Shown: positions 47,973 through 52,845 of the stretch, piece by piece
How positions within the stretch are numbered: the stretch's first letter is position 1
Layout: the number at the start of each line of letters is the position of its first letter
Sequence record: NC_028780.1
DNA: 64,000 bases
Source of the DNA: Escherichia phage slur07
Strand: one strand, 5' to 3'
Notes under the pieces: generated by a model
The model's input: only the letters and a program-made list of their open reading frames with translations
What the model was told of the DNA's origin: nothing
Database searches by the model: none
Translations under genes and position numbers: made by a program

Positions 47973-48002
47973 GTTTACAAGCCAAGGTAAAAATGTTATA
48001 GT
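47973..48002 (+). promoter_or_regulatory. T4-type early promoter
   Basis: GTTTAC 47973-47978, 18 nt, TATAGT 47997-48002. Confidence 0.6.
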
Positions 48003-48037
48003 ATAGTAGTCAACCGTCCGTAAGATGTGAGAAAAAT

Positions 48038-48784
48038 ATGAAACTGTCTAATAATCAAATTCGTAAAATTAAACGTCGTCTAGAGCATACCCAGGCATCT
48101 GCAAAAAGACGTTCTAAAGATTTTAACTTAGACTTCAATTACATTAAGAACATTTTAGATCAGAAAGTTTGTGCTTACTCAGGAGAACCTTTTGATAATC
48201 GTGTTGAAGGAGAGAAATTATCATTAGAACGTTTTGATAATAACGTTGGATACATTAAAGGGAATGTTATTGCAGTAAAGAAAAAGTATAATACATTTCG
48301 TTCTGATTATACTTTAGAAGAGTTGATTGAAAAGCGTGATTTATTTGCTTTGCGAATTGGTCGTTCATCTGCGAAAAAAGTTCATAAACTAAATTTAGAT
48401 GAAAAGAAATGGGCTAAAATCAAAAAGACTTATAATCAAATTAAAGCTATACAGAAAAAACGTGAAAACCGAATTGAACACATTTCTCAGCTTTCTAAAT
48501 CAAAACAGACCTCTGACATTAAGCTAAGGATTATAGCACTTAAAGCACGTATTGATGGTTCTCGCATAGCAGAAGGCGCTGAAGTTGTTAAATTGAACGT
48601 TCTTCTTAAAGGCTCGGATTGGAAAATTGTGAAAAAGCTGTCAGAAGCAGAAATGCAATATGATATGTGTGATAAAATTATTCAAGGTGTAGAGCGGTAT
48701 CAAAATTTGTCTTTTATTGATAAACTTAAACTGAAAAGAGGATACCCGCTAAATTGTTCAATTTTTAAACTTATCCGAGGATAA
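48038..48784 (+). CDS. srd: Srd-like protein
   Basis: 248 aa at the srd position between modA and dda; basic N-terminus. Confidence 0.45.
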   Translation: MKLSNNQIRKIKRRLEHTQASAKRRSKDFNLDFNYIKNILDQKVCAYSGEPFDNRVEGEKLSLERFDNNVGYIKGNVIAVKKKYNTFRSDYTLEELIEKRDLFALRIGRSSAKKVHKLNLDEKKWAKIKKTYNQIKAIQKKRENRIEHISQLSKSKQTSDIKLRIIALKARIDGSRIAEGAEVVKLNVLLKGSDWKIVKKLSEAEMQYDMCDKIIQGVERYQNLSFIDKLKLKRGYPLNCSIFKLIRG

Positions 48785-48785
48785 T

Positions 48786-49097
48786 ATGGTTTATGTATAT
48801 GCGATAGTTTACCGAGACAAAGACGGATTTACAGCGCCAGTTCCACTTGATGAACATCGTCCTGCTGTATTTTTTGAATGGAATATTGCTGATAAAGTAT
48901 TTACTACTCTTAAAGAGCAGTATCGACTAGCTTTAGGTAAGGGAATTCCAAGATTAGTTGAGACTCCACGTAAATTTTGGTTTAATAAAATAGAAGTTAA
49001 ACATGTTAAGCCTGATGTAGACACACAAAGATTATATCAGCGAATTTTAGATACTGGGCGTATTGTTAGTATACCAATTGCAGGGAATTTACGATGA
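48786..49097 (+). CDS. hypothetical protein
   Basis: 103 aa; ATGA-coupled to dda. Confidence 0.45.
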   Translation: MVYVYAIVYRDKDGFTAPVPLDEHRPAVFFEWNIADKVFTTLKEQYRLALGKGIPRLVETPRKFWFNKIEVKHVKPDVDTQRLYQRILDTGRIVSIPIAGNLR

Positions 49098-50413
49098 CAT
49101 TTGATGATTTGACCGAAGGCCAGAAAAATGCCTTTAACACTGTTATGAAGGCTATTAAAGAAAAGAAACACCATGTAACTATTAATGGACCTGCCGGTAC
49201 CGGTAAGACTACTCTTACTAAGTTCATCATTGAAGCTTTAATATCTACGGGTGAAACTGGTATTATTTTAGCAGCTCCTACTCATGCAGCTAAAAAGATT
49301 CTTTCAAAACTATCAGGGAAAGAAGCAAGTACTATTCATAGTATTCTTAAAATTAACCCAGTTACGTATGAAGAAAACGTTCTTTTTGAACAAAAAGAAG
49401 TACCAGATTTAGCTAAATGCAGGGTATTAATCTGCGACGAAGTGTCAATGTATGATAGAAAGCTCTTCAAAATTTTGCTTTCAACTATCCCACCATGGTG
49501 TACTATAATTGGAATAGGCGATAATAAGCAAATTAGACCTGTTGACCCAGGAGAAAATACTGCTTATATCAGTCCATTCTTTACACACAAAGATTTTTAT
49601 CAGTGTGAACTTACTGAAGTTAAACGCAGTAATGCTCCTATTATTGATGTAGCTACTGACGTTCGTAACGGTAAGTGGATTTATGATAAAGTTGTTGACG
49701 GTCATGGAGTACGTGGATTTACCGGTGATACCGCTTTACGCGATTTTATGGTAAATTATTTTTCAATCGTCAAATCACTAGATGATTTGTTTGAAAATCG
49801 CGTAATGGCATTTACGAATAAATCTGTTGATAAGTTAAATAGCATCATTCGTAAAAAGATTTTTGAAACTGATAAAGATTTTATTGTCGGTGAAATTATT
49901 GTAATGCAGGAACCATTAATTAAAACATATAAAATTGATGGAAAGCCTGTGTCAGAAATTATTTTTAATAACGGACAATTAGTTCGTATTATAGAAGCAG
50001 AGTATACATCGACGTTTGTTAAAGCTCGTGGTGTTCCTGGAGAATATCTAATTCGTCATTGGGATTTAACAGTAGAAACTTACGGCGATGATGAATATTA
50101 TCGTGAAAAGATTAAAATAATTTCATCCGATGAAGAATTGTATAAGTTTAACCTATTTTTAGGTAAAACGGCAGAAACTTATAAAAATTGGAACAAAGGC
50201 GGAAAAGCTCCGTGGAGTGATTTTTGGGATGCTAAATCACAGTTCAGTAAAGTGAAAGCACTTCCTGCATCAACATTCCATAAAGCGCAGGGTATGTCTG
50301 TAGACCGTGCTTTCATTTATACGCCTTGTATTCATTATGCAGATGCTGAATTAGCTCAGCAGCTTCTTTATGTTGGTGTCACTCGTGGTCGTTATGATGT
50401 GTTTTATGTGTGA
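49094..50413 (+). CDS. dda: SF1 DNA helicase Dda
   Basis: 439 aa (T4 Dda length); Walker A GPAGTGKTT; helicase motifs ICDEVSM, GDNKQ. Confidence 0.9.
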   Translation: MTFDDLTEGQKNAFNTVMKAIKEKKHHVTINGPAGTGKTTLTKFIIEALISTGETGIILAAPTHAAKKILSKLSGKEASTIHSILKINPVTYEENVLFEQKEVPDLAKCRVLICDEVSMYDRKLFKILLSTIPPWCTIIGIGDNKQIRPVDPGENTAYISPFFTHKDFYQCELTEVKRSNAPIIDVATDVRNGKWIYDKVVDGHGVRGFTGDTALRDFMVNYFSIVKSLDDLFENRVMAFTNKSVDKLNSIIRKKIFETDKDFIVGEIIVMQEPLIKTYKIDGKPVSEIIFNNGQLVRIIEAEYTSTFVKARGVPGEYLIRHWDLTVETYGDDEYYREKIKIISSDEELYKFNLFLGKTAETYKNWNKGGKAPWSDFWDAKSQFSKVKALPASTFHKAQGMSVDRAFIYTPCIHYADAELAQQLLYVGVTRGRYDVFYV

Positions 50414-50419
50414 GGATAT

Positions 50420-50680
50420 ATGATTAACATCAATTCAAAATATTTAAATCGTCTAATAGATGGTATAAGGAAGCATACTAATAAGCAAGATAATCTTAAT
50501 GTTATGGTAACAGGAGCTGAGCTCCTTCATAAGCTTTATCTTATAAGTGATACTATATTAGCAATTAAACGAATTGAAAAACAATCATATCACAGTAATA
50601 CAGATACGGTAATTACACTAGATGAAAGTGTCTGTAAATTACTAATTAAATTTGAGGAAGCTATTCGTGGAAATAACTAA
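50420..50680 (+). CDS. hypothetical protein, tandem paralog 1 of 3
   Basis: 86 aa; similar length and register to next two ORFs. Confidence 0.45.
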   Translation: MININSKYLNRLIDGIRKHTNKQDNLNVMVTGAELLHKLYLISDTILAIKRIEKQSYHSNTDTVITLDESVCKLLIKFEEAIRGNN

Positions 50681-50912
50681 AGATCAGTTTTATCTTCTTC
50701 AGGATAAAGTTAGCGAAATTTATGAAATTGCTCATGGTAAAAATCGTGAAACTGTAAAAATTGAATCTAGTAAGTTGATGCTTCAATTAGAAGAAATTGA
50801 ACGAGATTTAATTGCGTTAGAATTCTTTTGCGGTGAAGTGAAAACTGTTACAATTAATGATTATGTTTTAGGCGAAATTAGCTATCTTTATGAGGCGATT
50901 ATTAATGATTGA
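50667..50912 (+). CDS. hypothetical protein, tandem paralog 2 of 3
   Basis: about 81 aa from GTG 50667 (SD gagg); ..QF..L...V......G.E...I....L..LEEI..D... Confidence 0.45.
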   Translation: MEITKDQFYLLQDKVSEIYEIAHGKNRETVKIESSKLMLQLEEIERDLIALEFFCGEVKTVTINDYVLGEISYLYEAIIND

Positions 50913-51147
50913 ATTAAGTTGGTACCAATTTAAATCTCTTATGACAAATGTTAAAGCTGTCATTAAAGAAAATCAGGGTCCTGAAAATATTACTATTCGC
51001 GAAAAAGCTTTAAAGATAGTATACAGTCTTGAAGAAATACAAAAAGACATTGAATCTATGGCAAAATTTATTGATGAGCCTATCAATAAAGTTTATATTC
51101 AAGACTATACTGTAGGTCAAATTCGTGATTTAGCGAGGAAAATTTAA
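50905..51147 (+). CDS. hypothetical protein, tandem paralog 3 of 3
   Basis: about 80 aa from ATG 50905; aligns with paralog 2 (WYQFKSL..., LEEIQKDI..., IQDYTVGQI). Confidence 0.45.
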   Translation: MIELSWYQFKSLMTNVKAVIKENQGPENITIREKALKIVYSLEEIQKDIESMAKFIDEPINKVYIQDYTVGQIRDLARKI

Positions 51148-51830
51148 TGTTTGATTTTATTATAGATTTTGAAACAATGGGAAGTGGTGAAAAAGCAGCG
51201 GTTATTGATTTAGCTGTAATTGCTTTTGACCCTAATCCAGAAGTGGTTGAAACATTTGATGAATTAGTTTCACGTGGCATTAAAATCAAATTTGATTTAA
51301 AAAGCCAAAAAGGACATCGTCTTTTTACTAAAAGTACTATCGAATGGTGGAAGAATCAATCTCCTGAAGCTCGAAAAAATATTGCACCATCCGATGAAGA
51401 TGTAAGCACTATCGATGGTATTGCAAAATTTAATGATTACATCAATGCACATAACATCGATCCTTGGAAATCTCAAGGTTGGTGCCGTGGAATGTCGTTT
51501 GATTTTCCAATTTTAGTCGATCTCATTCGCGATATTCAACGTCTTAACGGCGTTTCCGAGAATGAGCTTGATACATTTAAGTTAGAACCTTGTAAATTCT
51601 GGAATCAGCGTGATATTCGTACCAGAATTGAAGCACTTCTGCTTGTTCGTGATATGACCACGTGTCCTCTTCCAAAAGGAACTTTAGATGGATTCGTTGC
51701 ACATGATTCTATTCATGACTGTGCGAAAGACATTCTGATGATGAAGTATGCTTTGCGATACGCTATGGGTCTTGAAGATGCTCCGTCAGAGGAAGAATGC
51801 GATCCTCTATCTCTTCCAACTAAACGATAA
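51147..51830 (+). CDS. dexA: exonuclease A (DEDD family)
   Basis: 227 aa (T4 DexA length); N-terminal DFETMG exonuclease motif. Confidence 0.85.
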   Translation: MFDFIIDFETMGSGEKAAVIDLAVIAFDPNPEVVETFDELVSRGIKIKFDLKSQKGHRLFTKSTIEWWKNQSPEARKNIAPSDEDVSTIDGIAKFNDYINAHNIDPWKSQGWCRGMSFDFPILVDLIRDIQRLNGVSENELDTFKLEPCKFWNQRDIRTRIEALLLVRDMTTCPLPKGTLDGFVAHDSIHDCAKDILMMKYALRYAMGLEDAPSEEECDPLSLPTKR

Positions 51831-51836
51831 AAAGTT

Positions 51837-51866
51837 GTTTACTTCCTCGGTTAGTTATGGTATTAT
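51837..51866 (+). promoter_or_regulatory. T4-type early promoter
   Basis: GTTTAC 51837-51842, 18 nt, TGGTATTAT (-10 51861-51866). Confidence 0.65.
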
Positions 51867-51893
51867 AACACCATAGCTACTGAGGATAATAAA

Positions 51894-52397
51894 ATGAAAA
51901 TTTATCGTGTTGAATCATCATTTAGTATTCTTAATTATGAAGATGCTATAACAATACGTCGAGATCTTTGTGTTCAAATAACTCCGTACAGGAGTATAAT
52001 AGATTCATGGAGTGAAGAGTGGTTATTACGCGTAGGTTATGACAGACCCAATTTTATGCATCATAGTAATGATAATAAAAGAATTCCTGTGCCGCATGAA
52101 GACAAATTATTAGTTAAAAATGCTAATATAGCAATTAATACTAATTTTGAGAAAGAAGAATATGTAGGCGTAGATCACTATATTCCAGGATGGTTTATAG
52201 CTCTTTATCATTTTGCTTTCGCTAGCGAATATGATATGATGAGATGGTTCACACGAGAAGAGCGTGAAGAATTAGCTTCTAAAGGATTTTATCTTGCTGT
52301 ATACGAAGTTCCTGAAGATGAAGTTATCATTGGTGGGCACCAAGTAATGTTCCGCAAATCCCATGCCGAATTAAAAGGCTTTATTACCTTAGATTAA
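51894..52397 (+). CDS. hypothetical protein
   Basis: 167 aa ORF downstream of early promoter. Confidence 0.45.
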   Translation: MKIYRVESSFSILNYEDAITIRRDLCVQITPYRSIIDSWSEEWLLRVGYDRPNFMHHSNDNKRIPVPHEDKLLVKNANIAINTNFEKEEYVGVDHYIPGWFIALYHFAFASEYDMMRWFTREEREELASKGFYLAVYEVPEDEVIIGGHQVMFRKSHAELKGFITLD

Positions 52398-52407
52398 AGA
52401 GAAAATT

Positions 52408-52845
52408 ATGATTAAAAATAATGCTGTTTATCAATTGAAAAAATTTGATGAAATTAAGAATTTTTCGGTACTGTCTAATACAGCTCATAATAAGTTTTGT
52501 GAACTTCTTGGTTTAACTGGCGGATATCCTTTTACTGTTATTAGTGTTAATAGCGGAATTCTTATCGGTATGATGTATATTGAAATTAGAAACTATTATG
52601 GAATGGTATCACCGCTTATTATTTATGAAAAAGATTTTAGTCTATTGACAGAAATTGAAAAACCTGAAGACCCGACTGATTTGTTGTGTAAGGCAGTTTA
52701 TATTCGTCGTCCATTCGCGAATCCGATTGGCGGTTGGGTAACTGACCAGTGGATTGAAGATGGCGTTGAACTTCTTAATGTAGTTCATGCTGGAGAGTAC
52801 TCCGTAGTTCCTCGCAGCGCAGTGATTAATGTTCGTGTAAGCTAG
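52408..52845 (+). CDS. hypothetical protein (paralog pair, shared C-terminal domain)
   Basis: 145 aa; C-terminal ..GGWVTDQWIEDGVELLNVVHAGEYSVVP.. shared with 52919..53407. Confidence 0.5.
   Translation: MIKNNAVYQLKKFDEIKNFSVLSNTAHNKFCELLGLTGGYPFTVISVNSGILIGMMYIEIRNYYGMVSPLIIYEKDFSLLTEIEKPEDPTDLLCKAVYIRRPFANPIGGWVTDQWIEDGVELLNVVHAGEYSVVPRSAVINVRVS

Follow-up and report, generated by a model that had tools for sequence, protein, structure and literature searches.

Phage T4 carries two small genes, dexA.2 and dexA.1, that are the closest described relatives of the genes reported here. DexA.2 is an uncharacterised 9.5 kDa protein that was detected by mass spectrometry as a target of cGAS conjugation in T4 infection (PMC10097602). 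In T4, a single transcription start serves the genes from dda.1 to dexA.1 (bioRxiv 10.1101/2024.04.04.588121). Two genome-wide T4 screens show that dexA.1 and dexA.2 are dispensable on laboratory E. coli: a CRISPRi-ART knockdown screen scored both as 'Not Fit', that is, without fitness effect (PMC11879866), and the HIDEN-SEQ transposon screen classed both as 'Non-essential', with 24 of 24 TA sites disrupted (bioRxiv 10.1101/2025.11.20.689424).

Two further protein families are found at this position of T4-like genomes. One is phrog_5263, whose gene follows dda in Gaprivervirus, Karamvirus, Gelderlandvirus, Winklervirus, Tegunavirus and Klebsiella phage Mexia. The other is phrog_4967 (RB14ncORF015c, Shfl2p018), which includes the third gene studied here, orfX, at 88–100% identity; Sf25 gp143 carries an annotation of similarity to pSs-1 gp30. 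No annotation in the records and libraries examined ties phrog_4967 to DexA.1/DexA.2. A literature search found no published function for DexA.1, DexA.2 or orfX. Public GenBank/RefSeq records label DexA.2 as 'dextranase', both DexA.1 and DexA.2 as 'exonuclease' and, in one T6 record, DexA.2 as 'tail sheath stabilizer'.

Here we compare these systems with a cluster of three small genes in the window, by which we mean the whole 64,000-nucleotide stretch of DNA analysed.

Organization of the dda–dexA interval

A 1-kb slice of the locus shares 99.7% DNA identity with Shigella phage SHFML-11 and matched 496 phage records; the locus belongs to a T4-like phage of the genus Tequatrovirus, and its gene calls agree with those of Tequatrovirus genomes. 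The interval is bounded on the plus strand by dda (positions 49094–50413), a 439-aa ORF annotated as the DNA helicase gene dda in matching phage records, and by dexA (51147–51830, plus strand), whose 227-aa product is 100% identical to exonuclease A (DexA) of RB14 and wV7. The original prediction, made from the letters alone, had placed three tandem ORFs of 80–86 aa upstream of dexA, and this arrangement was borne out. All three lie on the plus strand: orfX (50420–50680; 86 aa, ATG start, 9.9 kDa, pI 8.8), dexA.2 (50667–50912; 81 aa, GTG start, 9.5 kDa, pI 4.4) and dexA.1 (50905–51147; 80 aa, ATG start, 9.4 kDa, pI 6.25).

Overlaps of 8–14 nt had been claimed, and we found 14 nt between orfX and dexA.2 and 8 nt between dexA.2 and dexA.1; dexA.1 in turn overlaps dexA by 1 nt (TAATG). 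A GAGG lies 4 nt 5' of the orfX start, and for dexA.2, dexA.1 and dexA the distance is 9 nt. Both the GTG and the GAGG of dexA.2 fall inside the 3' end of orfX, and the ATG and GAGG of dexA.1 fall inside the 3' end of dexA.2. The GTG proposed as the start of the second ORF is the annotated start in T4, Sf25 and KMB22, and the N-terminus read from it (vEITKDQFY) is in register with the paralogs. Translation of the three small genes is probably coupled, since every start codon falls within or directly behind the 3' end of the gene before it and is served by a separate GAGG. A T4-like organisation in the window would put orfX, dexA.2 and dexA.1 on one message. When positions 48000–52500 were scanned for promoters and terminators, no signal within the cluster exceeded that expected from shuffled sequence.

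We considered and rejected programmed frameshifting at the dexA.2/dexA.1 junction: no slippery site is present in the 8-nt overlap ATGATTGA, and the sole fused gene, that of phage ime09, is explained by a 1-nt deletion. This deletion lies just before the dexA.1 start and yields a fused dexA.2–dexA.1 ORF of 159 aa (UniProt G1FHL1; locus slice 1748–2227), which could be real or a sequencing error. The ime09 fusion probably explains why the phrog_1700 model has 160 columns, with two paralogs end to end.

Paralogy and predicted structure of DexA.2 and DexA.1

The dexA.2 product is 96–100% identical to DexA.2 of T4, T2 and RB68, and that of dexA.1 is 94–96% identical to DexA.1 of other Tequatrovirus phages. 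The two proteins could be aligned directly by BLASTP, with 23 of 79 residues identical (29%), one gap and E=1e-8. Both matched phrog_1700 in searches of PHROG profiles (dexA.2, 1.6e-49; dexA.1, 6.8e-43), and PF26837 is a precomputed match on all close homologues of the two. Judged from these comparisons, dexA.2 and dexA.1 are clearly known T4 genes and old paralogs, and both belong to the DexA.1/DexA.2 family (PF26837/phrog_1700). The AlphaFold model of dexA.2 (pLDDT 93.8) consists of a strand (residues 2–4), two helices (5–24 and 28–55), a second strand (60–62) and a third helix (65–79).

None of the three small proteins matched Pfam at E<=1 in a set scanned without the PF26837 model. In NCBIfam, no nuclease or glycoside-hydrolase family was matched at E<=1, the sole match being a weak, sub-threshold one of dexA.1 to ESAT-6. 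Searches of the PDB by fold (Foldseek) and by profile found no structural relative, all matches being coiled coils or helical bundles of a designed or generic kind. Identity of DexA.1 and DexA.2 as an exonuclease or dextranase was rejected, as these are proteins of about 80 aa with no enzyme domain in Pfam or NCBIfam and no PDB relative. The 'exonuclease', 'dextranase' and 'tail sheath stabilizer' labels look like carry-over from the gene name dexA. We also considered ribbon-helix-helix DNA binding for the N-terminal strand and the two helices that follow. It was rejected as well: there was no Pfam match and no such Foldseek match in the PDB, the helices have 20 and 28 residues, and in the model the first strand pairs with the second within the dexA.2 monomer.

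Remote relationship of orfX to DexA.1/DexA.2

The orfX product belongs to phrog_4967 (E=9e-59), the 'hypothetical protein' of T6, RB14 and Shfl2 type, and occurs in 307 phage records at >=88% identity, all of them from Tequatrovirus. A single consensus had been proposed for all three ORFs. It holds for dexA.2 and dexA.1, but orfX carries none of the signature residues. Pairwise comparison gave the same division: the dexA.2/dexA.1 pair aligned significantly, whereas BLASTP produced no alignment of orfX to either at E<=100. Additionally, orfX had no phrog_1700 match at E<=1, its homologues carry no Pfam domain, and a profile built from dexA.1 and dexA.2 only did not reach significance against orfX (E=0.24 by profile search, E=0.23 by hhalign). 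By these measures, orfX is not a member of the DexA.1/DexA.2 family in the narrow sense (PF26837/phrog_1700).

Large databases gave few further relatives. With orfX as the query, a word-indexed search covering 5.8 billion proteins yielded just four matches, all near-identical. The dexA.1/dexA.2 profile, searched against 1.84 billion representatives at E<=0.001, retrieved neither orfX nor the copies from other genera; its 10 matches were all close relatives but one repeat protein. Protein P0110 (352 aa, about seven 'DYIAGEL...ICKKYNI' repeats) scored E=4.5e-4 through the 'DY..G.I' motif and was judged a false positive. Protein P0108, a cluster representative in the public library, corresponds to DexA.2 in which virtually all possible G-to-A substitutions have been made (giving, for example, E to K, D to N, V to I and G to N), which suggests that it comes from bisulfite-converted or similarly damaged reads and is not a real variant.

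On these results, it could be argued that only dexA.2 and dexA.1 are related and that orfX is an unrelated orphan, alike merely through a convergent small helical fold and similar composition. The absence of BLASTP similarity, the hhalign E value of 0.23 and the homologues' lack of a Pfam assignment all fit this explanation; moreover, three-helix bundles are common and the PDB matches were generic.

A different picture came from the other genera. The phrog_5263 profile was matched by all three window proteins (orfX, 1.4e-5 over residues 1–81; dexA.2, 1.7e-7; dexA.1, 4e-3), and it represents the gene after dda in other genera (CkP1_0015, 1.8e-28; VR25 gp014, 9e-32). We also built an independent profile from six other-genera proteins, none from Tequatrovirus, and searched it against the 559 six-frame ORFs of >=40 aa in the window. 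It picked exactly dexA.2 (1.7e-9), orfX (4.6e-7) and dexA.1 (7e-5), the next of the 559 ORFs having E=0.13. The orfX alignment to this profile runs end to end, with one 6-residue insertion in the loop between helix 2 and strand 2. Native scores exceeded the best of 20,000 shuffles for orfX (25.0 vs 13.1 bits), for dexA.2 (32.8 vs 15.2 bits) and, narrowly, for dexA.1 (18.0–18.6 vs 17.4 bits); the reversed orfX sequence scored 2.5 bits. By hhalign, the other-genera set aligned with orfX at 94.4% probability (E=9e-8, 74 columns) and with dexA.1/dexA.2 at 97.3% probability (E=1.7e-11).

Predicted structures were compared as well. The AlphaFold model of orfX (pLDDT 82.1), for which the alignment was shallow and two of five models were confident, has strands at residues 2–5 and 64–67 and helices at 6–22, 26–54 and 69–84. 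Elements thus follow in the same order, strand-helix-helix-strand-helix, in the orfX and dexA.2 models, for which separate alignments were used. In a Foldseek search of BFVD, a database of predicted viral structures, the orfX model matched a DexA.2 entry with TM scores of 0.69/0.73 and a probability of 0.99. The BFVD matches of the two models were largely the same, being small proteins of T4-like phages such as Cronus, CC31, Henu6, PM2 and Aeh1. In the search with the dexA.2 model, the orfX representative was absent from the best 50 of 210 matches (E<=10).

That orfX is an unrelated orphan is quite unlikely in view of the in-register 25-bit match, far above shuffles and the reversed sequence, the hhalign probability and the element order shared down to both short strands. 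Furthermore, orfX lies directly after dda, the position held by the other-genera copies. We therefore favour orfX being a remote member of a superfamily, with a tie to dexA.1 and dexA.2 that is transitive, through the phrog_5263 intermediate and the predicted fold. The superfamily, comprising phrog_1700, phrog_5263 and phrog_4967, is restricted to T4-like phages (Straboviridae), and its members are predicted to fold into a bundle of three helices that is closed off by a short sheet of two strands.

Loss of orfX in the T4 lineage

Alignment of T4, T2 and RB32 with the window, with junctions compared in 13 phages, revealed a single 232-nt gap corresponding to positions 50411–50642. The segment missing from T4-type genomes includes the orfX ribosome-binding site and codons 1–75. 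T4 retains the last 33 nt of orfX, encoding the end of the third helix together with the ribosome-binding site and GTG of dexA.2. The retained sequence argues for a deletion in the T4 lineage and not an insertion in the other. The comparison thus points to loss of orfX from the T4/T2 lineage by one 232-nt deletion, which would make T4 a deletion derivative at this locus. Across phage records, a close dexA.2 is present in about 495; about 60% of Tequatrovirus genomes have orfX and about 35% are without it. The 40-mer across the T4-type dda/dexA.2 junction occurs in 171 phage records.

We weighed the converse, in which the ancestral locus had two genes, as in T4, and the three-gene form arose from it by insertion of orfX. 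The restriction of orfX to Tequatrovirus, with identities of >=88%, fits this view, although presence and absence alone give no direction. However, the 21-nt T4 spacer matches the 3' end of orfX exactly, and in orfX these bases encode, in frame, the end of the conserved third helix. An insertion would need to give rise to a complete family member whose reading frame continues without a break into spacer codons that were already there, whereas one deletion suffices, and all 171 T4-type records have one common junction. We consider insertion very unlikely and retain deletion as the preferred explanation.

In T4, the 21 nt that separate dda from dexA.2 (locus slice 1890–1910) are what is left of the orfX tail. 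Joined to the ATGA of the dda stop, they make up a 12-codon mini-ORF, MIKFEEAIRGNN, which overlaps the dexA.2 GTG and might preserve translational coupling.

Other lesions and exchanges were seen at the locus. RB14 orfX contains an 8-nt tandem duplication, AAATATTT (locus slice about 1493–1500), that shifts the frame after codon 10, and the RB14 record annotates only a 58-aa ORF from the internal Met29; RB14 orfX is a pseudogene, or else its sequence contains an error. Alleles are also mosaic. Window orfX DNA is 99.2% identical to that of Shfl2, while window dexA.2 is 89.8% identical to Shfl2 and 98.4% to T2, which has no orfX; these identities imply recombination between orfX and dexA.2. DexA.2 protein identities fall into two main groups, with 157 records at 95–99% and 248 at 80–90%.

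Copy number and phylogeny across T4-like genera

A comparison of copy number across T-even phages had been proposed, and the number indeed varies: from zero to three family members lie between dda and dexA in the T4-like genera examined. Three are found in the window and in T6, Shfl2, Sf25 and related phages, and two in T4, T2 and RB32. Single members occur in Dhakavirus IME08, Gaprivervirus VR25, Klebsiella phage Mexia, Winklervirus X20 and Gelderlandvirus CF-SP2, and, next to a second small gene (phrog_18278), in Karamvirus CkP1 and Tegunavirus TG1. Kanagawavirus IME523 has no member and one phrog_18278-type gene instead; RB69, Providencia phage PSTCR6 and Aeromonas phage Riv-10 have none (in Riv-10, none annotated). 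Small ORFs in the interval of Krischvirus G2248 (two) and Acinetobacter phage AC4 (four) were not matched by the family profiles. A same-strand position between dda and dexA was found for the members of the window, T4, IME08, VR25, CkP1, Mexia, X20, TG1 and CF-SP2.

The phrog_18278 proteins (76–80 aa, with near-neutral pI where computed) are encoded directly 5' of dexA in Karamvirus, Tegunavirus and Kanagawavirus (locus slices: CkP1, 2634–2864; TG1, 2274–2504; IME523, 2262–2504). Profile searches and hhalign detected no sequence relation of phrog_18278 to any window protein.

In a neighbour-joining tree, dexA.1 grouped with the single Dhakavirus copy (99% bootstrap) and dexA.2 was sister to this pair (99%). 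orfX was placed outside this clade and close to the other-genera copies, a position that was weakly supported. The tree therefore indicates that the duplications are old, with lineage-specific loss afterwards, and that they do not represent a recent triplication. Of the tandem triplication originally proposed, the paralogy therefore stands, directly for dexA.2 and dexA.1 and through the intermediate family and predicted fold for orfX, and the recent event does not.

Linkage to dda and dexA raises another explanation for the cluster and the main rival to the one we prefer: the small proteins could be accessory subunits or regulators of Dda and/or DexA, with co-translation keeping their stoichiometry. 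In at least eight genera the family is found in the dda–dexA interval, its genes overlap, and in T4 they share a transcript with dda. However, RB69 and PSTCR6 keep dda and dexA adjacent without any small gene, Riv-10 has none annotated, and copy number ranges from zero to three while Dda and DexA are almost invariant. Dense, overlapping gene packing is the rule in T4 early regions, which makes linkage weak evidence. We regard a role as Dda or DexA accessory as unlikely.

Selection and rate of change

We estimated dN/dS by the Nei-Gojobori method from 9–13 Tequatrovirus alleles, excluding gene overlaps. The alleles came from GenBank phage records, since a scan of IMG/VR turned up only 2 orfX loci. 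The ratios were 0.15 for orfX, 0.11 for dexA.2 and 0.19 for dexA.1, and 0.016 for dda and 0.010 for dexA. Values of 0.11–0.19 indicate that each of the three small genes encodes a protein and is subject to purifying selection. dS was similar among the five genes (0.18–0.30), and dN was about 0.034 in the three small genes vs 0.002–0.003 in dda and dexA. The orfX, dexA.2 and dexA.1 proteins thus change about 10 times faster than Dda and DexA, which could reflect relaxed constraint.

Changes in dexA.2 and dexA.1 are commonest around the loop between helix 1 and helix 2; the dexA.2 C-terminal helix and the region near the dexA.1 N-terminus contain further changes. Residues shared by almost the whole superfamily are hydrophobic and map to helices or strands of the models. 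Rapid protein evolution under purifying selection, with conservation confined to the core, makes it plausible that the three copies have diversified in specificity, one of the two outcomes originally suggested.

The other suggestion, that the copies are kept for dosage, as more of the same activity, fared poorly. The tandem arrangement and co-expression are what dosage would predict. However, the copies are at most 29% identical and have pI values of 8.8, 4.4 and 6.25, their duplications predate the genus splits, and each copy is separately under purifying selection. Dosage is extremely improbable, and diversification remains the better account of the three copies.

Discussion

Our results suggest that the cluster consists of three genes of one superfamily, of which orfX was deleted in T4 and T2, and that the products are non-enzymatic binders with diverged partners; we hold this reading as a whole to be moderately probable. 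Taken by itself, the mechanism, in which the small proteins bind host or phage macromolecules without enzymatic activity, is put forward tentatively. It would agree with a conserved buried core and diverged surfaces and net charge (+2, −9 and 0 for orfX, dexA.2 and dexA.1, respectively). With only the core conserved and surfaces and net charge diverged, the copies probably differ in their partners or in the conditions under which they act, instead of serving dosage. They may be accessory genes that matter only on some hosts or under some conditions.

A bolder form of this proposal is that each paralog neutralises a different host factor or anti-phage defence, or that the paralogs form mixed acidic/basic oligomers. 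We give it a low probability. If it were true, the presence or absence of orfX would help to set which E. coli or Shigella strains a T-even phage infects. Should the proteins be host-range or counter-defence factors, phages with and without orfX would form a ready natural experiment.

What appears to be new here, from profile comparison and structure prediction, is the tie of orfX and phrog_4967 to DexA.1/DexA.2; dexA.2, dexA.1 and, as a hypothetical gene, orfX were already known. Three families with no known function (phrog_4967, phrog_1700 and phrog_5263) are thereby joined into one fold family of T4-like phages. The value lies mostly in annotation: T4 is presented as a deletion derivative at this locus, and the 'exonuclease' and 'dextranase' labels are flagged as unsupported. 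This is a modest annotation gain that does not overturn current understanding and would not surprise a specialist.

Compared with known systems, the window's dexA.2 and dexA.1 share with T4 DexA.2 and DexA.1, uncharacterised 9.5 kDa early/middle proteins, an identity of 94–100%, position, overlaps and the GTG start. Nothing differs between these two pairs; orfX is the gene without a match to the family models of DexA.1/DexA.2.

In the early region of T4, ModA and ModB are adjacent, diverged, non-essential paralogs, ADP-ribosyltransferases thought to differ in target specificity. ModA and ModB are enzymes with known targets, whereas the small proteins of the window have neither a catalytic signature nor a known target. 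By analogy, the small genes may nevertheless be likened to modA and modB, being adjacent, diverged and non-essential paralogs in the same early region.

The phrog_5263 proteins are about 20–35% identical to the window proteins. Unlike them, orfX is basic, has a 6-residue loop insertion and is without the W/F-F-x-G motif at the end of helix 2. The two groups share position, size (76–84 aa) and predicted fold class, and the phrog_5263 proteins are acidic like dexA.2. It is this acidic copy, following dda in other genera, that orfX most resembles.
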